A DNA stretch of 11,969 nt, taken from a virus. Taxonomy: Duplodnaviria > Heunggongvirae > Uroviricota > Caudoviricetes. The DNA lies in IMG/VR virus record IMGVR_UViG_2734482785_000020, positions 1-11,969 of that record; one strand, 5' to 3'. Below the pieces are notes generated by a model. It was given only the letters and a program-made list of their open reading frames with translations. It was not told where the DNA came from and ran no database searches. A program made the translations under genes and the position numbers. Below are positions 1 through 11,969 of this stretch, piece by piece (within the stretch, counting starts at the first letter, position 1; each line of letters starts with the position of its first letter).

Positions 1-147
1 ATGACGCAAATTCCGTTAAAAACCCTGCTACTGTGTTTAACCGCAGTAGCGATAATCTGGATCCTCCACACATCACCTTGTGAGTTGCGATTCAGGTTTG
101 CAGGAACGGAAATTGCGGCATTCTTACAATGTAAGTCTACACAGTAA
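1..147 (+). CDS. hok: Hok/Gef-family type I toxin (small membrane peptide), 48 aa
   Basis: ATG at 1 to TAA at 145-147. Translation MTQIPLKTLLLCLTAVAIIWILHTSPCELRFRFAGTEIAAFLQCKSTQ has an N-terminal hydrophobic helix and the C-E-L-R-F-R ... E-I-A-A-F-L-x-C-K signature recalled from Hok family toxins. It is below the 60-aa cutoff of the ORF track. Any mok/sok partner would lie upstream, outside the window. Confidence 0.75.
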   Translation: MTQIPLKTLLLCLTAVAIIWILHTSPCELRFRFAGTEIAAFLQCKSTQ

Positions 148-155
148 GGAACCGC

Positions 156-179
156 GACGGGGAAGTCAACTTCCCCGTC
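156..179 (+). other. Stable stem-loop in the hok 3' region (10-bp GC-rich stem GACGGGGAAG / CTTCCCCGTC, 4-nt loop)
   Basis: Perfect inverted repeat read directly from the sequence, 9 nt after the hok stop. It has no U-tract, so it is more likely an mRNA-stabilising or fold-back element than a terminator. Confidence 0.5.
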
Positions 180-237
180 AATCGGTTGCCAGGGTAAAGG
201 CCGGAACGGCACCCTATCTGCAGTCATGAACATCACA

Positions 238-270
238 AACCCGCCGTGTAAAAGCTGCGGGTTTTCTTTT
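238..270 (+). terminator. Rho-independent terminator-like hairpin oriented for the + strand (hok transcript)
   Basis: Stem AACCCGC / GCGGGTT with a 12-nt loop, followed by TTTTCTTTT. It lies between the hok stop and the 3' end of the convergent ogr-like gene. Confidence 0.45.
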
Positions 271-281
271 GGCTGGTATCC

Positions 282-536
282 TCAGGCCTGTAGTAGTTCC
301 AGCGCCATTTGCTTTTCCTCCGGGCGCATTCGTTCGATCAACAGCTTCAACACGCCGTTCTCCAGTCCGCTGGGGGTCAGTGTGTGCGAGTAGGTCAGAT
401 TCATCACCCAGGTATGCCCGCACTCAAGACGCTTGCAACGATAATACACGTCAGCAAACCGATCATCTTTCCAGAAGGTCTTTTCAATCACTGCTTGCTC
501 ACCACAGCAAAAACACCGCGCTTTCTGTCTGCGCAC
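282..536 (-). CDS. ogr: Ogr/Delta-family zinc-finger late-gene transcriptional activator (84 aa, GTG start)
   Basis: Cys-x2-Cys ... Cys-x4-Cys arrangement (RCFCCGEQ ... YRCKRLECGHTWV) followed by an aromatic-rich segment, matching the P2 Ogr / P4 Delta fold as recalled. The start codon is GTG at 536-534 with a GGAGG Shine-Dalgarno 7 nt upstream; stop TGA at 282-284. Confidence 0.75.
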   Translation of the reverse strand: MRRQKARCFCCGEQAVIEKTFWKDDRFADVYYRCKRLECGHTWVMNLTYSHTLTPSGLENGVLKLLIERMRPEEKQMALELLQA

Positions 537-686
537 TCCGGCACCTCCTGAATAAACGCTGATTGCTTGACCTGATTTTACTCGTCATCACGGGGGGGGG
601 TAACAGTCATTTCATTCAGTATCACTGTGTTAATTTTGTGTTACTGGTCTAACCAGTGGTTTTTGGGCTCTGTCTCATAATCCGGT

Positions 687-992
687 GGGGGGTGCGCAAG
701 TGGGTCACAAAGGTCACAACAGTCAAAAACAATGCTTAATATCATGATTTAAAAAGGAAATATTTGTGACCTTTTCAAGGTCACAGAAGGTCACACGAGG
801 TCACAGCCTTCAAAAATACCTTAATTATCAATTTGTTATAATTTTAATGTGTGACCTTTAGTGACTTCTCCAAAAGGTTACATGTGACTTTGTTGTGACC
901 CATTTGTGACCTTTAAAATTTACAGCAATATATTGATATATAATATGTTTTTCTATTTGTGACTTTTGTGACCCACTTGCGCACCCCCCCCC
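687..992. repeat. Iteron array (about 13 copies of GGTCACA / TGTGACC) in dyad arrangement with an AT-rich centre, bounded by 32-bp inverted repeats; putative ori/crr-like replication region or recombinase site
   Basis: GGTCACA at 703, 712, 779, 789, 799; TGTGACC or TGTGACT at 765, 850, 883, 894, 905, 958, 967, plus a degenerate copy at 861; spacing 9-11 bp. Left arm 687-718 (GGGGGGTGCGCAAGTGGGTCACAAAGGTCACA) is the reverse complement of 958-992 with one mismatch. AT-rich segments at about 820-848 and 912-957. The array is non-coding and sits immediately 3' of the recombinase and alpha-like genes. Confidence 0.7.
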
Positions 993-1190
993 AAATTTTA
1001 GCGCGACCCCTTAAAATGTTAATTAAACTCACTTGCTCTGTCTCACTCTCGCTAACTCTCTGTGATTGAAATGTATATCGCTACTGTTTGACTCTTTCTG
1101 ATAATTCGGGTGCGAGAGCAAAAAAATTGATGACGGCCACCGCTGCAATATGACCGTCATCGCATTGCTGTTACCGTTGGTTCTGGCCAA

Positions 1191-1218
1191 CAAAAAAGGT
1201 CAGTGGAAAACCGACCTC
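1191..1218 (-). terminator. Weak candidate intrinsic terminator for the alpha-recombinase operon
   Basis: On the minus strand a short stem (AGGTC / GACCT, 11-nt loop) is followed by TTTTTT, about 30 nt downstream of the recombinase stop. The stem is short, so support is weak. Confidence 0.3.
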
Positions 1219-1246
1219 TTTTGCTGCGAATGTAGCGTTCTGTGGG

Positions 1247-2248
1247 TTACTCTGCTGGCTCTTTTTGTTCAGTGAATGCCATATTAGCTATCGGGTTAAA
1301 CCTTATGGCATCCGCCAGATAGTCGGGGGAAAAATGCGCATAAGTCATCGTTTGCTGGATAGTCGCATGTCCAAGAATCCGTTGTAATGTAACGATATTC
1401 CCACCGTTCATCATAAAGTGTGTGGCAAATGTATGACGCATGACATGCGTAGCCTGCCCCTTCGGTAAATCCGGCTTCACCTCCTGAAGGATCTCCCGGA
1501 ACTTCAGATAATCAACCTGATACAACAACCCCGTCCGGCGGGTCTTAATCAGCGGCACGACCGAATCAGCCACAGGAACCGAACGGGATTTTCCGTTTTT
1601 GGTGTTAAAGAACGTCACCCGGTTGCCAATGATGTGCTCTCCACGTAGTTCCGATGCTTCACTCCATCGGGCACCAGTAGAAAGACACAGAATGGCAACA
1701 CAACGCGCATCACCCTCCAGTCGCTCAAGAAGCCGCTCAATCTCATCATCAGAAAGAAAGGCCATCTCTGTATTCTGAATTTTTAGCTTGCGTATACTGC
1801 GCACAGGGTTCGGGTTGTGAAAGACTCCTGCTTCAATCAGCACCGTGAACATGGTAGACAGAACGCACAAGTCACGATTAATGCTGGATGGCATTAAGCC
1901 GGCCTGTAATTTCTCTGATCGATACTCAAGCATAAATTTTTGTGTCATCTGGCTGGCGCGCGGATCTCCCATTTCACGAATCACTTTCTCCAGCCGGATC
2001 CTATAGGTATCGCCGTAAGCCTGGTTACGGCCATCAAGCATCCACCACGTATCAAGCAACTCTGATAATCGCCGGCGATCTGCGGGTTTAGCCAGCCATG
2101 GGTTGTTATGGAAATTCTGTAAAATATGTTTTTCGAAGACCTCTGCACTCCCTTTCCTGACAAAAATTTTCCGTATCCGTTTGCCGTACGCCCCTTGGGG
2201 CCTGATATCGAGCATCCATCGCCCATCATCCATCTTTCTGATCGACAT
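1247..2248 (-). CDS. Tyrosine site-specific recombinase / integrase (333 aa, P2-Int-like size)
   Basis: C-terminal catalytic region HVMRHTFATHFMMNGGNIVTLQRILGHATIQQTMTYAHFSPDYL carries the conserved R, H-x-x-R and terminal Tyr of the phage-integrase fold. The ATG at 2248 lies 2 nt after the alpha-like stop (TAA 2251-2253), with a GGAGG-type Shine-Dalgarno embedded in the alpha 3' end, so the two are translationally coupled. Confidence 0.85.
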   Translation of the reverse strand: MSIRKMDDGRWMLDIRPQGAYGKRIRKIFVRKGSAEVFEKHILQNFHNNPWLAKPADRRRLSELLDTWWMLDGRNQAYGDTYRIRLEKVIREMGDPRASQMTQKFMLEYRSEKLQAGLMPSSINRDLCVLSTMFTVLIEAGVFHNPNPVRSIRKLKIQNTEMAFLSDDEIERLLERLEGDARCVAILCLSTGARWSEASELRGEHIIGNRVTFFNTKNGKSRSVPVADSVVPLIKTRRTGLLYQVDYLKFREILQEVKPDLPKGQATHVMRHTFATHFMMNGGNIVTLQRILGHATIQQTMTYAHFSPDYLADAIRFNPIANMAFTEQKEPAE

Positions 2249-2250
2249 AC

Positions 2251-4920
2251 TTAAGCCCCCTCCTTGTTACTAAATATCCAGCATTTCAGTGTATCCGGCT
2301 CTTTGCTTTCTGCTGCCCCTCTTCCGACATTTGCCTGCCTGGATACCTCGCTACGGACGGTTTTGTACTCAACCAGCGGTCGGGAACGCCCAGACCTGAG
2401 AAGCTCTAACATTTCCGGCTCAGTCCTGATCTCAACGCGGTGAATGGCGGCAGTCTGCCTCAGTTGCGGGATGCTGACGGCGAACCCCTTCCGGTATTCC
2501 TTGCCGAAGTGATTTACGCCGTATTTTGTTGTGCTGTCCAGGTAGTCGAATGCCTCCCAGAACGCTATGACCTCCGGTAAGTCATCCGTCACCGCTTCAG
2601 CCTGCGCTGCTGCCATTTCCTCCAGTTCCCGGCATGTGGCATCAAGCCATTCATCCGGGATATCAATAACGCATTTCAGCGCCCTGACCAGCGCGATAAG
2701 TTGTGCGTGATTTTTGGCGATGCGGGGATGGCGAATATTTTCGCAACCGCAAAGGCGGGTCGTTTCAGGCTCTGAGATCGCCAGAAACATTTCCATAATT
2801 GCCCGTTCGCGGCTGACCGCCCGATGAATAAAGCCTGATACTTCCTCAACGGGGTAGAGTTCCAGCCGTCTCGCCGCCAGTCGGGTATCAGGTGAATGGC
2901 GTTTTTTATCGGTATATATGCGAATCAGTCGCTCAATAATTGCCAGTGAGGCATTTACCCTGGCATTCTGTGCAATCACGATAGCACCCTTAAAATCCGG
3001 GTCGTAGGTGTTGTTATTGTTGGTCTTAACGCCACGAACGCCGATACCACCGCCGTTATAGAGGCTTTTCAGGTTGTCAAAGTCAAACGCGCCTTTTTTC
3101 TGCACCTTGTCCCCCCTGTCAGCCTCAATCAGCACAACGGGCAACCCGGCGACCTGTCCAAAAGTGCGCTTCCAGCCCGCTTCAGAGCCTTTCGTTGGAT
3201 CAACGCCTTCGTAGTTGTCACGACCGCACAGTCGCCAGCAAAAATCAATCAATGTTGATTTGCCCGTTCCGGGCTCTCCGGTGACTTCAAGGAAAGGGAA
3301 AGATTCTGCTTTATCCCGGATTTGCTCACTGAACAGCGAACCCAGCCAGAAAGCCAGGGTAATAATTCCCTTTTCACCAAAAGCCAGCCAGAGATCTTTC
3401 ACCCAGAATTCTGTGAATTCATCCGGTTTTTTATAGTTAATCTGTAATGTTGGTGTTTTACTTAATGGTTTTGCGTTTATGCCATCAATTTCAAAATAAT
3501 CCTCGTCATTGATTTCGTAGGTTTTACCATTACAAACCGCGACATCATTAAACAGCCACGCGCCAATCTCTTTGTTGTATCCGATAAAATCCTGACCAAT
3601 AACCTCTTTTATTGCGGGAAGGTCATTTTTTATTAATGCGTCAAGCTGCGTAGTCGTTCCGGTATAAATACCACCTTTTGCCACATGTAACAGGCGTTTC
3701 TTAAATTCAGATGCGGATGTTAATTGTCCTGATGTAAAAGTATTTTTCACTGTAGTACCATCCGGGAACGTTACACGGAAGTAATACCATGCTTCATCCG
3801 TGTCATTGTTTCGAATGTAATAAAGCGGCGCTGGGTTACAGTTTGCGATTTCTTTTACTGCACCGGATTCCTTAAGTGCAATTTTTCGCGCTTCATCTTC
3901 GTCAACATTTCGCTCATTAATGACACGCTCAACAGCCTTCATATGGCGCTCAATATCCAGCTTGAACCAGAAAACACGGTTATCAAAAGTAAAATGAAAT
4001 TCCTTTCGCTCACGAAAGGAAAACATTATTAGCGCCTTATCTCTTGGAGATTTCGCCAGCAATAAATCACCGTAATAGCGGTATCTTTTCACATCATGGC
4101 CATGCAGCCTTCCGGCGATGTGTAAATCATTCCAGTCGCGTTTATTGCTGTTTTTACCTGGTAATGCTGCCGCCGTTCTCCAGCCGTCTTCGGCGCTGCG
4201 TTCTGCATGTTTTTTCGCGTAACGCTCACCCGCACGCCCGTTATCCAGCGCCCACACGATAACCGGGCGTGGATTATCCCCGCACAGCTTCGCCAGTTCT
4301 TCCAGCGATTTATCAGGGTAGTTCACGGCAGACATGACAGAAACGGCCGCAATGCCATTCTGGTTAAGGCTGATGGCATCAAAGATACCCTCACAAATCC
4401 AGATTTCTTTGGCCTTGCTTAAATCCGCTCCCGGATAAGCCCACCACAGCCCCTTGTAACTGCCGGAAAAATTCGCCTTGCGAGCGAAGCGTTCCGGTCG
4501 GTCTATGATGCGCTCCCACCACACGCCGTCAGCCAGCGTAAAACGCACAGTAGCGGCCTGTTCGCCGCTTTCCTTGTCCTGGTATCGCTCCTGAGTAAAT
4601 GCCCCTTTCAGTGGCTCCACAGCAATATTGCGCGCCTCCTGAAGATAAGCTGCCGCTGCTGCACATGGGTCGTCTTTCGTGCTGATATAGCGATCTGACC
4701 ATGACGAAAACACATCCGGGTAAAGTTCTTTGGTCAGCAGGTCTGTACCGCATTTATTTTCGCGGCCACAGTGTACGATGTACGGCCTCTCAAGACTGGT
4801 AAACAGTTCCTTCTTTCCACATTGCGGACAAACACCATAGCGAAGATAGTTATTTTCTTCTTTAAAGTTGTAATCACGAATAAGACGGTTAATAATCTCT
4901 TTTCTGGTGTTATGTTTCAT
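2251..4920 (-). CDS. P4 alpha-like bifunctional DNA primase / SF3 helicase (about 889 aa)
   Basis: N-terminal zinc-binding motif (CPQCG ... HCGRENKCG), TOPRIM-like EGIFDAISLNQNG, Walker A VTGEPGTGKSTLIDF and a downstream VVLIEADRGD-type acidic motif, then a roughly 250-aa C-terminal extension, as in the iteron-binding domain of P4 alpha. Start placed at ATG 4920 (MKHNTRKEI); the ORF-track start at 4944 lies inside a hairpin and is less likely. Confidence 0.85.
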   Translation of the reverse strand: MKHNTRKEIINRLIRDYNFKEENNYLRYGVCPQCGKKELFTSLERPYIVHCGRENKCGTDLLTKELYPDVFSSWSDRYISTKDDPCAAAAAYLQEARNIAVEPLKGAFTQERYQDKESGEQAATVRFTLADGVWWERIIDRPERFARKANFSGSYKGLWWAYPGADLSKAKEIWICEGIFDAISLNQNGIAAVSVMSAVNYPDKSLEELAKLCGDNPRPVIVWALDNGRAGERYAKKHAERSAEDGWRTAAALPGKNSNKRDWNDLHIAGRLHGHDVKRYRYYGDLLLAKSPRDKALIMFSFRERKEFHFTFDNRVFWFKLDIERHMKAVERVINERNVDEDEARKIALKESGAVKEIANCNPAPLYYIRNNDTDEAWYYFRVTFPDGTTVKNTFTSGQLTSASEFKKRLLHVAKGGIYTGTTTQLDALIKNDLPAIKEVIGQDFIGYNKEIGAWLFNDVAVCNGKTYEINDEDYFEIDGINAKPLSKTPTLQINYKKPDEFTEFWVKDLWLAFGEKGIITLAFWLGSLFSEQIRDKAESFPFLEVTGEPGTGKSTLIDFCWRLCGRDNYEGVDPTKGSEAGWKRTFGQVAGLPVVLIEADRGDKVQKKGAFDFDNLKSLYNGGGIGVRGVKTNNNNTYDPDFKGAIVIAQNARVNASLAIIERLIRIYTDKKRHSPDTRLAARRLELYPVEEVSGFIHRAVSRERAIMEMFLAISEPETTRLCGCENIRHPRIAKNHAQLIALVRALKCVIDIPDEWLDATCRELEEMAAAQAEAVTDDLPEVIAFWEAFDYLDSTTKYGVNHFGKEYRKGFAVSIPQLRQTAAIHRVEIRTEPEMLELLRSGRSRPLVEYKTVRSEVSRQANVGRGAAESKEPDTLKCWIFSNKEGA

Positions 4921-4933
4921 ATATAAATCCCCC

Positions 4934-4963
4934 CCCCACTGCACCTTTTGCAGTGGGGTTTTT
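4934..4963 (+). terminator. Intrinsic-terminator-like hairpin oriented for the + strand, overlapping the alpha translation-initiation region
   Basis: 10-bp stem CCCCACTGCA / TGCAGTGGGG (4934-4943 and 4949-4958), 5-nt loop, then TTTTT (4959-4963); preceded by a C9 tract (4929-4937). On the minus-strand mRNA the same hairpin has no U-tract and partly sequesters the G-rich Shine-Dalgarno of alpha. Confidence 0.45.
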
Positions 4964-4964
4964 A

Positions 4965-5270
4965 TTAATTACTCGTTACTTCTTGTTTCCGGGCAATCCC
5001 TGCGGCTTCAGCCTGACGCCATGAAAAAATGCCGCCAGAAAGATGCATACCTGATTTTATTGATTGTAATTCCCGACTAATAATATTAGACAGAGATGTA
5101 ATATCTTTATTGGTAATTTCTGCACCCACTCCGCAGCTTCTTTCATCAAACATGATAGACATAAGGTTGATGAGATTAATTACATCTGTGAGATCTTCTT
5201 TTGCATCCTCTGTAAAAAAACCAACATATTCTTTATGTAAAAGATTTGCGTAATTCTGATTTTCAGACAT
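4965..5270 (-). CDS. Hypothetical protein (101 aa), AT-rich cargo-like ORF upstream of alpha
   Basis: Uninterrupted 101-codon ORF with GGGGAG about 5 nt upstream of the ATG. The composition is visibly more AT-rich than flanking genes. No recognisable motif. Confidence 0.55.
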   Translation of the reverse strand: MSENQNYANLLHKEYVGFFTEDAKEDLTDVINLINLMSIMFDERSCGVGAEITNKDITSLSNIISRELQSIKSGMHLSGGIFSWRQAEAAGIARKQEVTSN

Positions 5271-5337
5271 AAAAACTCCCCGACCCGTAAAGGTCGAAAT
5301 ATAAATTGAATTCAGTTATCAGTGGATAATTCGGGAA

Positions 5338-5556
5338 TCAGGCGGAAAGCTGCGTCACCTTTAACGCCTTAAAGTGAGTCATTCCCAGCTCTTCCAGCCC
5401 TTCGGCTGCGCGGCGTATGGCTTCGCCCGGTCCCGTTCCGTATACCGTTGCATGTGCATGTTTGGTTAACCCACGTTTATTAACGGCATAACCCAGCACA
5501 AAGAAACGTTTTTCACCGCTGCCATTATTTTTACGGGATGCTGAACGGGTTTTCAT
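5338..5556 (-). CDS. Hypothetical small protein (72 aa)
   Basis: ORF with an AAGGTG Shine-Dalgarno about 6 nt upstream; its ATG overlaps the stop of the upstream 62-aa ORF (ATGA overlap at 5553-5556), indicating translational coupling. Confidence 0.5.
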   Translation of the reverse strand: MKTRSASRKNNGSGEKRFFVLGYAVNKRGLTKHAHATVYGTGPGEAIRRAAEGLEELGMTHFKALKVTQLSA

Positions 5557-5741
5557 TTCTTCACCTTTACCACTGATGCTGTGAGTTCTTCTTCTGGTAA
5601 TTGATATTTCGGCGCAATTTCTTCCGTATACCTGATAGCGTCCCTTGCCGCTTTTCCTTTTGATTTATATTTATATGTGGTCCGGTAGTTTTCTTCCTCT
5701 CCTGTTACCACATTACGCAATTTAATATGAATCTCGTACAT
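5553..5741 (-). CDS. Hypothetical small basic protein (62 aa, MYEIHIKLRN...)
   Basis: Start chosen at ATG 5741 because of a GGAGGGG Shine-Dalgarno 7-8 nt upstream; the longer ORF-track version (to 5870) has no ribosome-binding site and overlaps the neighbouring ORF. Lys/Glu-rich. Confidence 0.45.
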   Translation of the reverse strand: MYEIHIKLRNVVTGEEENYRTTYKYKSKGKAARDAIRYTEEIAPKYQLPEEELTASVVKVKK

Positions 5742-5784
5742 CGTTACCCCTCCATCTCCAGAATGTTTACCGTGCATTTGTGGG

Positions 5785-5931
5785 TTAATTTCCCCGTTCA
5801 TTCGTGCGGCTGTACTCCATGCGGCTGGCAGCACGCAGGGCATCATCACAGGTCTGATATTCCCTGACATGAAAAAACTGACGAACGTCGCCGCTCTGGC
5901 AGTTAATCAGGGTGATAAGGAGCTTAAACAT
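5785..5931 (-). CDS. Hypothetical small protein (48 aa, MFKLLITLINCQSGD...)
   Basis: ATG at 5931 preceded by GGGAGG about 6 nt upstream; the start overlaps the stop of the upstream ORF. Short, so support is limited. Confidence 0.35.
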   Translation of the reverse strand: MFKLLITLINCQSGDVRQFFHVREYQTCDDALRAASRMEYSRTNERGN

Positions 5932-6445
5932 TGCACGCCTCCCGGATACGAATACGGGAAACAAAGACCAGACGGGATGCCGGAAGCAGGGCGCGTGCTT
6001 CGCGCTCACTGGCAGCGGTAACGGTATGAAGGCGAATATTTTTACCGTGGCACTGCATAAAGCGCCAGATAAAATCAGGGCGTGTTGATATAGCCATTTT
6101 GGCGGCTCCTCTTACTGATTTACGGAGTCTCGCCAGCACGCTGCTAAACATGGTGGCGGGACGTAACAGGGTTAGCAGACTGGCGTAAGAGAAACCAGCG
6201 AGCACAAAGGCTCCCCCATTACGCCCCGCCATAATACGGGGTAGGGTGGAATTACGGGCACAAAAAAACCGCATTACGGAAATATAGCGGCTACCCGCTC
6301 TTACAATCAGGCTGCTAAACCCGGCACCTGTTTTCTGAGGCGCGGGCAAACGATACGCCATGACAAAAAAGCGAGTCAAGCAATATTGCAAATTATTTTT
6401 GTGCAATTGCGCTGAGTGATTGATTTCTGTACGTAAAAAGTTCAT
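5924..6445 (-). CDS. Hypothetical protein (about 173 aa), Arg/Ala/Ser-rich
   Basis: Only long ORF in any frame across 5924-6451. ATG at 6445 with GGGA 6 nt upstream (an alternative ATG at 6451). The unusual composition leaves the frame and boundaries uncertain. Confidence 0.4.
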   Translation of the reverse strand: MNFLRTEINHSAQLHKNNLQYCLTRFFVMAYRLPAPQKTGAGFSSLIVRAGSRYISVMRFFCARNSTLPRIMAGRNGGAFVLAGFSYASLLTLLRPATMFSSVLARLRKSVRGAAKMAISTRPDFIWRFMQCHGKNIRLHTVTAASEREARALLPASRLVFVSRIRIREACNV

Positions 6446-6493
6446 AATCATTCCCGAACTGTAGATTCATAGATTTTTCCTTTTGTTGGTGAA

Positions 6494-6519
6494 CGGCCTG
6501 CATCCTGCGGGCCGTTTTT
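6494..6519 (+). terminator. Terminator-like hairpin oriented for the + strand between the capsid-like gene and the small-ORF chain
   Basis: Stem CGGCCTGCA / TGCGGGCCG (one mismatch, 3-nt loop) followed by TTTTT at 6515-6519. On the minus strand it is preceded by an A-tract rather than followed by a U-tract. Confidence 0.35.
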
Positions 6520-6531
6520 CTTATCCAGCTA

Positions 6532-7584
6532 TCACGAATTAAACGTAATCACCCCTTCATCCACCGCCGCATAAAGGTTCACATTCGCCAGTCCATAGCC
6601 CTGATGACGCCATGCCCGCATGTTCAGACGTTTGGTGTCTTCGTTCATGTCGAACTCTGTACGGTAAGAGCCTTCAATGATGTTAATCAGCAGGTTCGAA
6701 AGTGTGGTCACAGCCAGGCGTCCACCCGGCATAAACGGCGGCACAAAGGCAAAATGCCCGGCAATGGTGCTTCCCCATGCGCTGGCGGCTTCGGTGTCTC
6801 CTGCGCCGTTTGCGGTGCTGAAAAGACGCAGACGTTCAGCAGCTGCAAGTTCTGATCCCACCATCACCACAAGGCGCGGATCGTTCTGCCATTGTGCGGG
6901 AATTTTCGTTCTAATCAGATGCTGCGCCAGTGCATCCACCCCCGGAAAATCACCGCCTGCGCCCAGCGTGATGGCATCGCTGATAATCTGTCGCCCTTCG
7001 CTGGTCTTCCTGGCAATTTCATGCCAGCCGGGCGCAACATCCTCGCCGTTCGGGTTGATGTTCGGTGCGGTGAAGGTTGCCGCTGACGTGCCGTTAAAGC
7101 CAATCCGCAGATCATCCAGGTAAATTTTACTGGTCAGATAGCCACACAAAATCCCCAGCAGTGCATCGCGGTTTTTATCGTCATTCACTGCATTGGCCAT
7201 CACAACCAGGTTAATCCAGTCGAGATATTCACATGAGTCCATCTCATAGCATTCAACCGGAGAGCCTTTAATATCCATGGCACGGCTAAAGCGTCCTTCC
7301 TCGGCGCGTCCGGTGGATAAGCGCGCATCCCCAATAAGGTTAATAGCGGACTGATGCGGATTAACTGACAGATATTTTATTTGCCCGGAAAGCCAGTTAG
7401 AGGGGGAAATAAAATGCACAAACGGATTTTTTTGCGTGTATGCGCTGATACGTGCGTAAAGCTCTCTTTCTGCAAGCACGGTATTAATGGCGCTTTCGTT
7501 TTCGTTCATCGCCGGAGATGAAATATTGATACTTTCAAGCACGCTTTCGGCTTTATCTTTCAGTTCATTAATATTAAAAAACAT
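6532..7584 (-). CDS. P2 gpN-family major capsid protein homolog (about 350 aa)
   Basis: Alignment by eye with the recalled P2 gpN sequence: GFNG...V.GW, G.GGD...DAL and DP.LVV.VG..L.A blocks (ours LRIGFNGTS ... VAPGW ... LGAGGDFPGVDALA ... QNDPRLVVMVGSELAA) in the same order and spacing. Start placed at ATG 7584 (MFFNINELKDK) with an AGGGGA Shine-Dalgarno; the ORF-track start at 7656 would overlap the upstream gene by about 60 nt. Confidence 0.65.
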   Translation of the reverse strand: MFFNINELKDKAESVLESINISSPAMNENESAINTVLAERELYARISAYTQKNPFVHFISPSNWLSGQIKYLSVNPHQSAINLIGDARLSTGRAEEGRFSRAMDIKGSPVECYEMDSCEYLDWINLVVMANAVNDDKNRDALLGILCGYLTSKIYLDDLRIGFNGTSAATFTAPNINPNGEDVAPGWHEIARKTSEGRQIISDAITLGAGGDFPGVDALAQHLIRTKIPAQWQNDPRLVVMVGSELAAAERLRLFSTANGAGDTEAASAWGSTIAGHFAFVPPFMPGGRLAVTTLSNLLINIIEGSYRTEFDMNEDTKRLNMRAWRHQGYGLANVNLYAAVDEGVITFNS

Positions 7585-7594
7585 ACATTTCCCC

Positions 7595-8470
7595 TTAAAT
7601 AATATCTTTCTTTTCGGTATGTACAGACAGCAAAGCGGTCGCCGCATCCCGTTCAATTCGTGGCATACTTATTCTGGTATATTCCTGTAACGTCATCGCG
7701 TGGCGAATGGATTCGCTGCCGTTGCTGTAATAATGCTTCGTCAGAGTGCGTAACGCATCATTAATATATTCCTGCCGCAAATGGTTGTATTTAGCCATTA
7801 CTGAATAAGGAATGAATTTGATTTCCTCATTGCGTAAAGTGACGATCGCACTGACTGCCGAAATAATCTCCTTATAAAGATTGATACGGCGATTTGTTTC
7901 CGCCTCCAGTCCGTCAAGCGAAGCGGAAAAAATCCACGCATTATCGCCATCATGAGAAAGATTTTTCCCTGTATTAATAAGGCGTATAGCTTGCTCACAG
8001 GTGGCGCGCGTCTTGCCGCAATTTCGTTTCTCATTTTCAAGCAGATGCGTTTCATGCTCGATAACGTCTTTTACTGAATACCGATCACCATAAGGGTTAT
8101 CAGCACCAGTGGGCTGTAACGGAGTGTTACGCAATTCGCTGATTTTATTTTCCTGAGCAGTCACTTTGTTTTCTGCTTCGCGGATTTTTTGCTGAATTCG
8201 CGCAATGGCAATATCGCAATCTTCCGCAATATCCCGCATTTCTTCATCACTGATTTCATGCACTAATGGCAGGCAATACCCTGTGATATCGCGATATTCC
8301 TCGGCGTGTCTGTGCATGTATTTTGATGCAATGATATCTATCAGGCGAATAACCAGAGAGACTTCAGATTGTCCCTTTTGATATACAAAACTACGGGACC
8401 ACGATGCAATCGTGGTCATTTCCGGGCAGTTTTTAAAAACGGGTGTTAATATCGTGATTGTGTTTTCCAT
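7595..8470 (-). CDS. Hypothetical protein (291 aa), unknown function, with a predicted helical central segment
   Basis: Long ORF with GGAG upstream; stop 10 nt before the capsid-like start. The central segment (IARIQQKIREAENKVTAQENKISELRN) looks coiled-coil-like. No catalytic motif recognised. Confidence 0.6.
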   Translation of the reverse strand: MENTITILTPVFKNCPEMTTIASWSRSFVYQKGQSEVSLVIRLIDIIASKYMHRHAEEYRDITGYCLPLVHEISDEEMRDIAEDCDIAIARIQQKIREAENKVTAQENKISELRNTPLQPTGADNPYGDRYSVKDVIEHETHLLENEKRNCGKTRATCEQAIRLINTGKNLSHDGDNAWIFSASLDGLEAETNRRINLYKEIISAVSAIVTLRNEEIKFIPYSVMAKYNHLRQEYINDALRTLTKHYYSNGSESIRHAMTLQEYTRISMPRIERDAATALLSVHTEKKDII

Positions 8471-8475
8471 AAATG

Positions 8476-8787
8476 TTACTCCGGTAAATCAGTGTCTCTC
8501 TTTTTCTTTTTAGCGTGTTCATGCGGGTTATTTGCTTCGGCAATAGTTGGCGGATTGCGCAACCACCATAAAACATCACTTAACAACCAGGTGCATGAAC
8601 AGCGCCCCAAAGAATGACGGGGAGGAAAAGCGCCGATTTTCTCCAGTTCCCAACGCCGGGAGCGTGAAAGCGTTGTCATCTTTTTACACTTCTCTTCCCT
8701 GATGCGTTCTTCGCAGTCAAAACCATACTCGGCGAGTATGGTGCGACGCTGTTCTGGAGTTGGTGGAATGAATGCGGATTGAGTCAT
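8476..8787 (-). CDS. AlpA-like helix-turn-helix regulator with an N-terminal extension (103 aa)
   Basis: C-terminal half (MTTLSRSRRWELEKIGAFPPRHSLGRCSCTWLLSDVLWWL) fits the AlpA/Xis-type HTH pattern (S.S.....E..G.FP....LG.....W...EV..W). GGGAG Shine-Dalgarno 7 nt upstream of ATG 8787. The roughly 36-aa N-terminal extension is unexplained. Confidence 0.6.
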   Translation of the reverse strand: MTQSAFIPPTPEQRRTILAEYGFDCEERIREEKCKKMTTLSRSRRWELEKIGAFPPRHSLGRCSCTWLLSDVLWWLRNPPTIAEANNPHEHAKKKKRDTDLPE

Positions 8788-8860
8788 GTTTTTCTCCCGT
8801 GCTCTGAACTTTTCGGGGGTTATTTTTCACAAACCGCTCCAATCAGCTCAAGGAGAAGAG

Positions 8861-8894
8861 GGCTAAATTAGCCTACCGGAAGGCTAATTTAGCG
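8861..8894. promoter_or_regulatory. Tandem palindromic operator-like sites (GGCTAAATTAGCC, 8 bp, GGCTAATTTAGCG) upstream of the alpA-like gene
   Basis: Two 13-bp near-palindromes centred 21 bp apart (two helical turns); together they form a 12-bp perfect inverted repeat. They lie in the 121-bp gap between the cargo ORF stop and the alpA-like start and are followed on the + strand by a T-rich run. Confidence 0.45.
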
Positions 8895-8908
8895 TTTAGA
8901 GAATAATT

Positions 8909-9964
8909 TTATCTTTTTAACCAATTGGTTATAGTGTCCTTCGAAATAGTAAATTTCTTTCCATTTTTTTCTGCAATCGCCTCTAGTGCTGTCGCTATCT
9001 TGGTTGGTTGGTCTTTCACGTCACTGAGATACTCACCTATAAGTAAAGCCAAAACATCCCGCATACGGCCAGATACGCGTTCTGACTTAGGTTTTGAGTG
9101 TGTTAATTTGTTGTCTTGGGATGTTGATTTGCTATCAGTCTCTGGAAGGGGGCCAAATGCGGAGGCTCTCCATTTATGAAGATTAGACATAATATAGGAG
9201 CTGTATTTCTTTGTCATTACACCATCACTACCCTCATTATTAATAACACTTTTAATAGTTAAAAAATCTGACTTTGACAGATACAAATCATCAATATCAA
9301 ACTTAATTTCTTTATCAGTTAACAGGCTTACGCTGAAATTACTATCAGGCGCATATATTCTATTGTCTTCACCTGGTTGAATTAACGGGCGAAATTTCCA
9401 TACACTGAAGAAAAAATCGGCATCTAATCCAAAAAAACCATGAACACTAGCATAGTATTTTAAATTTGGTGTAGAGGCATCTATTCCATATCGTGCTAAA
9501 CTTTCTAATTCTCTTTTAAGTGAGTCAGGAAATAATAAAACACTATTCACCACGCAAAAATCATCGCTCACACATAAATTAGTTTTGTAAGTAAAACTTT
9601 GATAAAAATCCCTTACATCCAGATTATCTATTGCAGATATTCCACCTGAACGCCTTTCTATTATATCAACAATGCGCCCGGCAATCTCGCTAAAGTTATT
9701 AAATGACTCATCAAGCCCTAAAAAGACCTCTTTTTCTGACTCATTCAATTCTTGTAAATCGTTAACAAAATCAATTAATTTATCATGCCAGACAAAATTA
9801 TCAGCACAAAATGGTTCAACATAGCAATAACCATCTTCAATCAATATATATAACCTTATATTCCCAGTCATAGCCCAATGAATAAAATCATCAACTGTAC
9901 AACCTAACAACTCCGCAGCCCTTGTTATTGGGTAAAACTCTCTTAGCGGTAATGCCATATTCAT
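8909..9964 (-). CDS. Hypothetical cargo protein (about 351 aa) with N- and C-terminal helix-turn-helix-like segments; AT-rich
   Basis: A 357-codon ORF open from TTG 9982; first ATGs at 9964 and 9958. N-terminus YPITRAAELLGCTVDDFIHWAMTGNI and C-terminus KIATALEAIAEKNGKKFTISKDTITNWLKR both resemble HTH motifs; the middle roughly 200 aa has no recognised motif. The composition is far more AT-rich than the integrase and the backbone, and the gene starts about 15 nt after the integrase stop. Confidence 0.65.
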   Translation of the reverse strand: MNMALPLREFYPITRAAELLGCTVDDFIHWAMTGNIRLYILIEDGYCYVEPFCADNFVWHDKLIDFVNDLQELNESEKEVFLGLDESFNNFSEIAGRIVDIIERRSGGISAIDNLDVRDFYQSFTYKTNLCVSDDFCVVNSVLLFPDSLKRELESLARYGIDASTPNLKYYASVHGFFGLDADFFFSVWKFRPLIQPGEDNRIYAPDSNFSVSLLTDKEIKFDIDDLYLSKSDFLTIKSVINNEGSDGVMTKKYSSYIMSNLHKWRASAFGPLPETDSKSTSQDNKLTHSKPKSERVSGRMRDVLALLIGEYLSDVKDQPTKIATALEAIAEKNGKKFTISKDTITNWLKR

Positions 9965-9978
9965 TCTCGCAAATAAAA

Positions 9979-11181
9979 TCAATCTCTTTTATTCAGTTTT
10001 TCCAGATATTCAAACCAGTCATTTAACGCTTGTAATTTAAAAGGAATATACTGGCTAAGGTTATAGTTAAATTCTGCCGAGCCAGCATTATAAACGTGCC
10101 CTAATAATGACTCGACAATATGAGGCATCACCCCCATATTATTTAGCCCCGTTGAAAATGTTCGTCTTAAATCGTGTAGCGTCCATTTCTCATTATGGCC
10201 AAACATTTTATACATTCGACGACCTTTCAGGGATACGGCTGTGTGTGTTCGTTCTTCCCCTAAAAGCAATCCTGTATCTCCTGTTTTTCCCTTTAAATCT
10301 TTTAACCAACCTCTTATAGCTACAGGTATTGGGCGAACAATTTTTTTACTGTTTTTGCTATTCCCCCGTGGAACTGTCCATTCCCATGAAATGAAATCCC
10401 ACTCACTCCAACGGGAGCGGCGCAACTCTGCCGTTCTGGCACCAAATAAAATCAATAGTTTTATTAGTCGAGAAAAATAAATATCTCCGCGCTCTTCTTT
10501 TCCAAAACGCCAAAGATCTGCTAATTCCCTGTCACTCAACACTCGATCGCGTTGCCCGGCAGCTTCGCCCACATCGCTTAAAGTTAAGTGGGCAAGCGCA
10601 TCGCAAACGGCATAATGCCGAACATTACAGAACCTCAATGCCTGTTTTGCGTGTTGAAACATTCTTCCGGCTGTTTTGGGGCTGATTGCACGTATTTCGT
10701 CAAAGCAGTTAACCCAATACCGCGTATCGCACCGTGATAACGGAAAACTCCCAATTCTGGGGTAAATATGTTTGCACAATTGCGCCCGTATCAGATCTTC
10801 ATCTTTGCGTTTGTGCCTTGCATAGTTAACAAGCCAGTACTCCAGCGCATCCCGAACAGTAACAGGGGTGCGGGTTTCTTCGGTAAAAAGCTGAATCTCA
10901 ATTTTGGGGTTAAGTCCGTTAGCCAACCAGTGGCGGCAGCGTTCCCGCCATTTACGGGCATCTTTCAAACTCATATCAGGATAACGCCCCAACGTTACCC
11001 GATTAAGAGTGCTATCACGCCCACCGAGCCGATATGAAAAAACCCAGCTCACATGCCCTCTTGTGGACAATCTAACCCCCAGCCCTTCACCATCAGCAAT
11101 CATCTCAACATGCTTTCTGGTTGTGCCTGTCAGGGCTTTTAGTTTCCTGTCACTCAGCTTATTAGTTCCAGACACCTTCAT
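9979..11181 (-). CDS. P4-type tyrosine integrase (about 400 aa)
   Basis: N-terminal arm-binding-type domain (GLGVRLSTRGHVSWVFSYRLGGRDSTLNRVTLGRYPDMSLKDARKWRE) and C-terminal catalytic core (LHDLRRTFSTGLNNMGVMPHIVESLLGHV...). Start at ATG 11181 (MKVSGTNK) with GGAG upstream; the ORF-track extension to 11271 has no ribosome-binding site. Confidence 0.85.
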   Translation of the reverse strand: MKVSGTNKLSDRKLKALTGTTRKHVEMIADGEGLGVRLSTRGHVSWVFSYRLGGRDSTLNRVTLGRYPDMSLKDARKWRERCRHWLANGLNPKIEIQLFTEETRTPVTVRDALEYWLVNYARHKRKDEDLIRAQLCKHIYPRIGSFPLSRCDTRYWVNCFDEIRAISPKTAGRMFQHAKQALRFCNVRHYAVCDALAHLTLSDVGEAAGQRDRVLSDRELADLWRFGKEERGDIYFSRLIKLLILFGARTAELRRSRWSEWDFISWEWTVPRGNSKNSKKIVRPIPVAIRGWLKDLKGKTGDTGLLLGEERTHTAVSLKGRRMYKMFGHNEKWTLHDLRRTFSTGLNNMGVMPHIVESLLGHVYNAGSAEFNYNLSQYIPFKLQALNDWFEYLEKLNKRD

Positions 11182-11188
11182 AACTCCA

Positions 11189-11214
11189 ATGTGTATACAC
11201 GTATTGATACACAT
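11189..11214. promoter_or_regulatory. Palindromic element (ATGTGTAT-N10-ATACACAT, containing the perfect palindrome GTGTATACAC) abutting the integrase ribosome-binding site
   Basis: Read directly from the sequence; it sits 8-33 nt upstream of the integrase start codon. Candidate operator or RNA structure controlling integrase expression. Confidence 0.35.
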
Positions 11215-11355
11215 AACATGGTAATACTCAGAAAAACTGAAGTCACCCAAGAACAGAAAATGCTGTAACACAATGGAATTAAATAATTTTTTATACGGAA
11301 CGTGAAAAAGTCAGAAAGGGAGAGAACAAGAAAAACATTACTTCTTGCGTTATTT

Positions 11356-11383
11356 TCGGCACCTTTTATGTAGCGAAGGTGCC
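11356..11383. other. 9-bp inverted repeat CGGCACCTT / AAGGTGCCG with a 10-nt loop in the integrase-upstream intergenic region
   Basis: Perfect inverted repeat in AT-rich intergenic DNA, followed on the + strand by a T-rich stretch. Could be a terminator, an att-associated site or a regulator-binding site. Confidence 0.3.
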
Positions 11384-11670
11384 GGAATATATTCTCTTTT
11401 GTTACTTATTTCTATACCGTGCACAATATTTTTATCCCTCATATTTATAGGGTAAATTACCTGTAAAGTAGTGTCTAATTACCCGCCTCGCAAACTCCAG
11501 TTTTCAAATATCTATTTCAGGTCAAAAGATTGAATTATTCACTGGAGACGATTCGTAAATTCGCTGGATTTTTGACTAAAGTTTCTTTAGGATTTGTCTC
11601 ATCGTATGATTAATTACACCAATCGTTCAACGTCTTGCTGATAAGTGATGGCGATTATATGAGGTTAGCA

Positions 11671-11799
11671 ATGCCTTCTGGAAATCAGGAACCCCGCCGC
11701 GATCCTGAATTAAAACGTAAAGCCTGGCTGGCGGTTTTTCTTGGTTCTGCACTTTTCTGGGTGGTTGTCGCACTGCTGATTTGGAAAGTGTGGGGATAA
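11671..11799 (+). CDS. Small single-pass membrane protein (42 aa)
   Basis: ATG 11671 with GAGG about 7 nt upstream. Translation MPSGNQEPRRDPELKRKAWLAVFLGSALFWVVVALLIWKVWG has a charged N-terminus and one hydrophobic helix. Stop TAA 11797-11799. Confidence 0.5.
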   Translation: MPSGNQEPRRDPELKRKAWLAVFLGSALFWVVVALLIWKVWG

Positions 11800-11801
11800 C
11801 T

Positions 11802-11969
11802 ATGGTCGGTCAGGAGCAACTGGAGTCGTCACCATTATGCCAGCATAGTGACAATGAAACAGAAACGAAACGGGAATGTTCCGTCGTTATTCCAGACGAC
11901 TGGCAACTAACATCGCAGCAGCAAGCCTTTATAGAACTGTTTGCTGAAGATGATCAGCCGAAACAATAA
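11802..11969 (+). CDS. Small acidic protein (55 aa)
   Basis: ATG 11802 lies 2 nt after the upstream stop, with GGGGA 6 nt upstream. Translation MVGQEQLESSPLCQHSDNETETKRECSVVIPDDWQLTSQQQAFIELFAEDDQPKQ; stop TAA at 11967-11969, the window end. Confidence 0.45.
   Translation: MVGQEQLESSPLCQHSDNETETKRECSVVIPDDWQLTSQQQAFIELFAEDDQPKQ

Follow-up and report, generated by a model that had tools for sequence, protein, structure and literature searches.

An orphan all-helical protein family encoded next to a P2-family capsid gene in enterobacterial satellites, and its probable role in capsid assembly

Introduction

Why should a small satellite without a terminase gene encode a major capsid protein of the P2 family, and what is the gene that sits immediately in front of it? 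The question is raised by IMG/VR record IMGVR_UViG_2734482785_000020, of which positions 1 to 11,969 (the whole 11,969-nucleotide stretch analysed here, which we call the window) are a small integrated satellite of a tailed phage. An open reading frame (ORF) at 7595..8470 on the minus strand of the window, named ORF291 here after the 291 amino acids of its orphan, all-α product, lies directly upstream of the capsid gene. We show that ORF291 belongs to a conserved family confined, wherever its genomic context could be read, to the same position in related satellites, and we argue that it probably acts together with the satellite capsid protein in morphogenesis.

Results

ORF291 starts with an ATG codon at 8470, preceded by a GGAG ribosome-binding site, and ends with a TAA codon at 7597-7595. 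Its ATG follows the stop codon of alpA after a gap of 5 nt, and exactly 10 nt (GGGGAAATGT, 7585..7594, minus strand) separate its own stop codon from the ATG of the capsid gene at 7584; from this tight packing, alpA, ORF291 and the capsid gene are predicted to form one operon. An earlier reading of this DNA from its letters alone (the sequence-only reading) had delimited the ORF, counted the 10 nt up to the capsid-like gene and noted a slight AT shift. All three observations hold, the G+C (GC) content being 43.0% in ORF291 compared with 45.4% in the window and 50.8% in the capsid gene. The Escherichia coli protein is annotated in RefSeq as 'hypothetical protein'. Between E. coli alleles, the ratio of nonsynonymous to synonymous substitution rates (dN/dS) was 0.19-0.23 for ORF291 and, likewise, 0.15-0.31 for the capsid gene, and therefore ORF291 is a translated gene under purifying selection. 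These data confirm that it is a real, conserved coding gene. Its product is mildly acidic, with an isoelectric point of 6.0.

An exhaustive profile hidden Markov model (HMM) search of 1.84 billion representative proteins retrieved only six clusters of the ORF291 family. Genomic contexts were read for five of them, leaving out P0014, a fragment of 89 amino acids, and all five representatives showed the gene order AlpA, ORF291-like protein, Phage_cap_P2, primase and integrase. One of these proteins, P0011 of locus L010, was 249 amino acids long owing to a truncated gene call; an upstream ATG yields a product of 287 amino acids with the conserved N-terminus (L010 8887-9750). A second pass with a word-indexed profile search added a Salmonella branch. 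When the satellite capsid gene was used as the query, genes of 281-290 codons without a Pfam match were found upstream of it in Yersinia, Pectobacterium, Enterobacter and Salmonella, and the Yersinia ruckeri protein proved to be a remote ORF291 homologue by profile-profile comparison (hhalign, 97.8%, E=9e-13). The family thus recovered extends over ten or more enterobacterial genera, with identities to ORF291 from 94% down to ~15%. Wherever the context of a relative could be read, the gene was flanked on one side by an AlpA-type gene and, immediately downstream, by a P2-family capsid gene (Phage_cap_P2), in a satellite related to P4 or to the phage-inducible chromosomal islands (PICIs). A pattern scan of species-representative contigs gave zero matches to ORF291, because the species representatives contain no close relatives, and the broader family alignment has no stretch conserved enough to serve for a pattern search.

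The sequence-only reading had proposed that ORF291 might be the partner of the capsid homologue. This proposal gains support from the strict co-occurrence of the two genes, which extends to the five clusters and to 16 further species-level loci described below; no ORF291-family gene with a readable context was found apart from an adjacent capsid gene. Since ORF291 always travels with the satellite capsid gene, it is probably a capsid-assembly partner. The two genes also diverge together. Over eight loci, pairwise identities of ORF291 correlated with those of the capsid protein at r=0.97, compared with 0.64 for the primase, 0.27 for the second integrase and 0.13 for alpA, which is equally adjacent to ORF291 and yet does not co-diverge with it. 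At locus L006, the primase is 91-98% identical to that of the window type, whereas ORF291 is only 33% and the capsid protein 58% identical, and ORF291 and the capsid gene therefore behave as a single cassette. The divergence of ORF291 is also about twice as fast as that of the capsid protein.

We then asked which gene occupies this position elsewhere, using 80 species-level loci that encode P2-family capsids and classing their neighbouring genes with HMMs. A gpO-family gene was found directly upstream of the capsid gene in 63 of the 80 loci (full-length in 62, split in one, L078). All 63 carry terS and 61 carry terL, and they are therefore phages. An ORF291-family gene took the same place in 16 loci, which have no terminase and mostly a recognisable alpA gene, and which are therefore satellites. 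The one remaining locus was cut by a contig end. None of the 79 informative loci had both a gpO gene and an ORF291-family gene upstream. The sequence-only reading had put ORF291 where Sid- or Psu-like capsid-remodelling genes would be expected; the slot is not that of Sid or Psu, because P4 keeps sid and psu in a separate late operon. The position is the one that gpO takes upstream of gpN in P2-like phages.

In P2, gpO combines a maturation (serine) protease in residues 1-141 with an internal scaffold in residues 195-284, the helical C-terminal part (PMC7552001). A gene of ~170 codons, encoding 173 amino acids (169 in L018), was detected directly downstream of the capsid gene in six of the 16 satellite loci and in L013 and L018. 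It matches the protease half of gpO only, at positions 2-137 of 282 in the gpO HMM and 3-145 of 268 in PF05929 (5e-44). These protease-only genes lie at 8011-8532 in L013, at 3563-4072 in L018 and at ~4855-5391 in L019-L022, L025 and L087; the sister satellites that carry them come from Yersinia, Pectobacterium, Rahnella and Brenneria. Given the protease-only gene downstream and the ORF291-like gene upstream, the protease has thus been kept, the scaffold half has been lost and an ORF291-like gene stands in its place. The window-type satellite has lost the gpO protease as well, and a gpO HMM run over the whole window gave zero matches.

The capsid protein, encoded at 6532..7584 on the minus strand, is a P2-family (HK97-fold) major capsid homologue of 350 amino acids (PF05125, 4e-43; PHROG 70, 2e-53) with only 29% identity to P2 gpN over 177 amino acids. 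Its closest phage relatives are capsid proteins of ESSI-2-like Peduoviridae (~43%), and identity in the core is 42-44%. The N-arm, consisting of the first ~65 residues (~7390-7584), is unrelated to the phage N-arms, with 8-15% identity; in the protease-bearing satellites L013 and L018, it is 29-31% identical to the N-arms of ESSI-2-like phages. The N-arm is the region of gpN that contains the gpO cleavage site, and in HK97-fold phages such as 80α, as seen in the 80α/SaPI1 procapsid structures, the C-terminus of the scaffold touches the N-arm of the capsid protein.

Searches for known relatives of ORF291 were uniformly negative. Pfam, PHROGs, NCBIfam and PADLOC gave nothing significant for ORF291 or for 16-18 family members. 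The matches that these libraries did return were sub-threshold coiled-coil noise, such as a YwqH-like match of 21 bits against a cut-off of 33.7, and they included no helix-turn-helix (HTH), nuclease or other regulatory domain. A tblastn search of 50,697 phage records found no match, and two ORF291 profiles run against PDB sequences returned only noise and designed helical bundles. Direct comparison with P2 gpO gave E=0.48 by BLASTP and a probability of 0.3-3.9% by hhalign, the comparisons including a three-sequence gpO alignment and, for the value of 3.9%, profiles of 57 gpO and 27 ORF291-family sequences; no match to a gpO or protease-domain model revealed a gpO serine protease domain in ORF291. 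A short alignment between ORF291 residues ~56-114 and gpO residues ~168-237 kept recurring (hhalign below 4%), and we judged it to reflect coiled-coil composition, not homology. For P4 Sid and Psu, BLASTP E-values were at least 0.3 and hhalign probabilities at most 0.3%. The absence of any recognisable likeness to Sid, Psu or gpO, as stated in the sequence-only reading, is therefore confirmed by BLASTP and by profile-profile comparison, and the terminase to which it also saw no resemblance has no gene in the window. Taken together with the structural comparisons below, the remote-homology searches matched ORF291 to no unrelated regulatory or housekeeping family. In the literature, we found neither the gene nor its pairing with a capsid gene described.

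An AlphaFold2 model of ORF291, computed with 18 diverse homologues as input, reached a mean predicted local distance difference test score (pLDDT) of 86.3 and a predicted template modelling score (pTM) of 0.77. The model is all-α apart from two isolated single-residue bridges, with helices at residues 36-63, 75-115, 133-170, 190-210, 224-248, 250-258 and 261-286. Helices 75-115 and 133-170 form a central antiparallel hairpin of ~40 residues, in keeping with the helical central segment anticipated from the sequence. In the broad family alignment this hairpin is highly variable. Conservation is concentrated in the N-terminal ~80 residues and in a C-terminal motif, 'YY..x.E.lRn'; R42, T63, Y65, E77, Y247, E253 and R256 are invariant, and G64 and P68 nearly so. 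Comparison of the model with PDB structures found no meaningful fold match and no fold shared with Psu (3rx6) or Sid (7jw1), and a Foldseek search of the BFVD viral models gave no meaningful match either (best E 0.11).

The rest of the window is consistent with a satellite that depends on a P2-like phage. The main genes, from the integrase to ogr, are all on the minus strand, with several small ORFs between an Icd-like ORF and the primase. A P4-type tyrosine integrase with Arm-DNA-bind_3 and Phage_integrase domains (9979..11271, minus strand) marks the island edge, and alpA (8476..8787, minus strand), encoding an AlpA/Vis-type HTH regulator, is the first gene of the putative operon. Downstream of the capsid gene come the Icd-like ORF (5924..6451, minus strand), a Toprim primase/replicase (2251..4944, minus strand; PHROG 1139), a second integrase of the Int_N type (1247..2248, minus strand), which is conserved after the primase in relatives with full context, and an Ogr/Delta-type zinc-finger late-gene activator (282..536, minus strand), which points indirectly to a P2-like helper. 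We considered the Icd-like ORF as a remnant of the gpO protease and rejected this, as the gpO HMM matches nothing in the window. Inside this ORF lies a C4/CI-type antisense immunity RNA (6149..6236, minus strand; Rfam RF01695, 74 bits, gathering score 45), which suggests P1/P4-style RNA immunity in the satellite. Between ogr and the second integrase is a field of iterons (679..997), in which GGTCACA/TGTGACC occurs at least 12 times, in either orientation, and which a 41-nt inverted repeat of 90% complementarity encloses (679-719 / 957-997); the field probably serves as the replication origin, the other candidate role being that of integrase arm sites. At the left end, a small toxin ORF of the Hok/Gef type (1-147, plus strand) matches a Hok/Gef gene annotated in E. 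coli islands, and therefore the element reaches past the window there. The island is found in the hpt-gcd interval of E. coli STEC313 and at a tRNA-Arg gene of STEC316.

In the window we found no terminase and no gpO, and besides the capsid gene the larger ORFs match neither a portal nor another virion-structural family; no ORF of the window matches sid or psu. The likeness of its proteins to those of P4 is remote (integrase 25%, AlpA/Vis 32%, Ogr/Delta 23%, α marginal). The window and its relatives do show the layout of Gram-negative PICIs, that is, int, alpA, late-type genes and primase running in one direction within ~10-20 kb. The Ogr/Delta-type late-promoter dyad TGT-N12-ACA occurs once, inside ORF291, which is not above chance and was not retained as a candidate promoter.

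Several further features were observed. A GC-rich hairpin with a 12-bp stem (6491..6517) lies 15 nt past the stop codon of the capsid gene and is a candidate operon end; its T-run is on the plus strand only, so that it resembles either a terminator of antisense transcription or an operon end that lacks a U-tract. Between the integrase and alpA lies a second orphan, orf357 (8909..9982, minus strand), with a GC content of 34.8% overall and 27.9% at third codon positions and no match in Pfam, PHROGs, NCBIfam or PADLOC. Homologues occupy the same int-alpA slot in Enterobacter (L017 4508-5581, 29%) and Salmonella (L015 4787-5707, 26%); the gene is present in only some relatives and absent, for instance, from L002, and an accessory or defence function is possible. 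Between orf357 and alpA, at 8860-8895 (minus strand), lies a near-perfect inverted repeat of 12 nt, GCTAAATTAGCC...GGCTAATTTAGC, which could terminate orf357 transcription or act as an operator in front of the alpA promoter. The element encodes two tyrosine recombinases, one of the P4 type at its edge and one of the Int_N type after the primase. Locus L010 (CP030026.1; 1-5842, 8642-16743) has no P4-type integrase, and ~2.8 kb separate it from a P2-like prophage, at the gpD-ogr end of the latter; by its looks, the satellite has integrated in tandem with a likely helper, perhaps by means of the Int_N integrase.

Discussion

The strict pairing of ORF291 with the capsid gene, their joint divergence and the exchange of gpO for ORF291 at one and the same slot are the evidence for a role of ORF291 in capsid morphogenesis. 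A narrower proposal is that ORF291 acts specifically as an internal scaffold-type factor that replaces the scaffold domain of gpO, and this we consider the leading explanation, at somewhat less than even odds. Indirectly, it agrees with the position of the gene, with the remodelled N-arm of the capsid protein and with several scaffold-like traits of ORF291, namely an all-α structure with a hairpin of ~40 residues, mild acidity and a divergence faster than that of the capsid protein. Other observations weigh against these interpretations. In the AlphaFold2 model, ORF291 is compact and apparently well packed, with its pTM of 0.77, an architecture less usual among internal scaffolds, many of which are extended and flexible. 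No homology or fold likeness of ORF291 to gpO, Sid, Psu or any scaffold in PDB or BFVD is detectable. The two genes might also co-diverge because ORF291 and the capsid protein each follow one component of the helper instead of following each other. The window-type satellite lacks the protease gene, so that maturation would still need the helper. Finally, in EcCICFT073, which has a λ-type capsid gene and is the only Gram-negative PICI tested genetically, deletion of the capsid gene spared both transfer and interference (PMC6092414; PMC10111431), so that the capsid modules of satellites may not be essential or may have a different purpose.

Among the alternatives, an external position of ORF291 fits the co-occurrence and co-divergence with the capsid gene equally well. 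ORF291 would then be an external scaffold or size determinant, as are P4 Sid and TcaP of the PICI-like elements (PLEs), placed outside the capsomers of the satellite capsid and/or helper gpN and forcing a T=4 shell, which would hold the ~12-kb satellite and not the ~30-kb helper genome. The element has no match to sid or psu, and it is about a third as long as an ESSI-2-like genome, both in line with this idea. So is the related PICI PmCI172, which makes small capsids and encodes a capsid homologue, and for which the reports name no size-determining gene (PMC6092414, PMC6893505). Even so, we think it unlikely that ORF291 works from the outside of the shell. Placing it on the exterior of the mature satellite capsid as a decoration or stabilisation protein, an analogue of P4 Psu or λ gpD, seems to us very improbable.

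ORF291 might instead have no part in morphogenesis, and redirect packaging as Rpp does, inhibit helper gpO, gpN or terminase, or control helper late genes; its adjacency to the capsid gene would then come from a shared helper-specific cassette. This would suit the lack of any match to a structural-protein family, the resemblance of the model to a compact helical protein and the dispensability of the EcCICFT073 capsid gene, and joint adaptation to one helper lineage could account for the co-divergence. A search for the P2 cos site in the window and in L001, with up to three mismatches allowed, was negative, so packaging redirection may be needed. However, hitch-hiking in a cassette can hardly explain by itself why ORF291 and gpO exclude each other at exactly the upstream slot, or why sister satellites have lost only the scaffold half of gpO. 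Recombination, moreover, splits alpA from ORF291 across a spacer of 5 nt, and none was seen between ORF291 and the capsid gene at the eight loci, and the family libraries revealed no domain in ORF291 that would suit a regulator or nuclease. A role outside morphogenesis is therefore an account to which we give little weight.

If ORF291 is a morphogenetic partner acting as a scaffold, the following sequence of events can be envisaged. A P2-like (ESSI-2-like) helper phage would switch on alpA, and transcription of the alpA-ORF291-capsid operon would supply ORF291 and the capsid protein together. The regions conserved at the two ends of ORF291 could form a base that binds the capsid protein, plausibly at its remodelled N-arm, and the long, fast-evolving helical hairpin might serve as an oligomerisation or spacer element. 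The satellite capsid would in this way assemble without the scaffold domain of helper gpO, alone or mixed with helper gpN, into shells that are perhaps small and fit the ~12-kb element, and the helper would supply the portal, terminase, head completion protein, protease and tail. In its widest form, this proposal makes ORF291 and the capsid gene a previously undescribed two-gene module of capsid piracy, in which a structurally novel scaffold displaced that of gpO and with which widespread enterobacterial satellites would make shells of their own, probably small ones, and rely on P2-like helpers only for portal, terminase, protease and tail; we put this forward tentatively, as a possibility that may well prove too broad. 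What is new here is a putatively capsid-directed satellite module that joins an orphan protein family to a satellite capsid gene. Of 29 reference Gram-negative PICIs, 21 are reported to carry a capsid gene (PMC10111431), and the ORF291 family offers a concrete candidate bearing on why such islands carry capsid genes, including the size determinant of PmCI172. An ORF291-like gene together with Phage_cap_P2, in the absence of a terminase gene, can serve as a genomic marker for satellites of this kind. Were ORF291 to be a scaffold or size determinant, it would represent a new structural solution to capsid piracy, and satellites would have been caught splitting gpO, with the protease kept and the scaffold replaced.

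Comparison with known systems delimits this module. ORF291 shares with P2 gpO its place immediately before a P2-family capsid gene and a similar size (291 and 284 amino acids, respectively), and differs from it in having no sequence relationship and no protease domain, in being all-α and in residing in satellites devoid of terminase. Like Sid and Psu of P4, it is an all-α protein encoded by a satellite and, as we infer, aimed at the capsids of P2-like helpers, and its element shares with P4 functions of the Ogr/Delta, AlpA/Vis and C4/CI-RNA types. In contrast, P4 itself encodes no capsid protein; ORF291 is paired with a satellite capsid homologue and stands in another operon context. The element does not fit the P4-like core set (int, psu, delta, sid, alpA, epsilon and alpha; PMC8628076), as sid and psu are unmatched, and satellites without these two genes would fall outside the int-psu-delta-sid definition of P4-like elements (PMC8628076).

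Other satellites have also turned to the capsid or scaffold of their helper. SaPIbov5, a Staphylococcus aureus pathogenicity island (SaPI), encodes Ccm, a diverged copy of the helper capsid protein with 23% identity (PMC6893505), compared with 42-44% in the core here; the passages of this review that were consulted mention no comparable satellite partner upstream of ccm, whereas in the present satellites a conserved partner gene stood beside the capsid gene at every locus examined. CpmB of SaPI1 and TcaP of PLE, both small helical proteins made by satellites, alter capsid size by competing with the helper scaffold or taking its place (10.1101/2022.09.08.507074; PMC10945586). Unlike ORF291, they act on the helper capsid protein only; they are unrelated to it in sequence, and the ORF291 model has no fold match in PDB. 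With the Gram-negative PICIs EcCICFT073 and PmCI172, the element shares the layout of int, alpA, late-type gene(s) and primase, to which it adds a P2-family capsid gene, an Ogr/Delta activator, a C4-type RNA and a second integrase. It differs from capsid-forming PICIs (cf-PICIs) in that, among the matches to the families searched, there is no portal, terminase or connector gene. If our interpretation is true, the ORF291-capsid pair would represent an intermediate between satellites of the P4 and SaPI type, which steal capsids, and PICIs that form their own.

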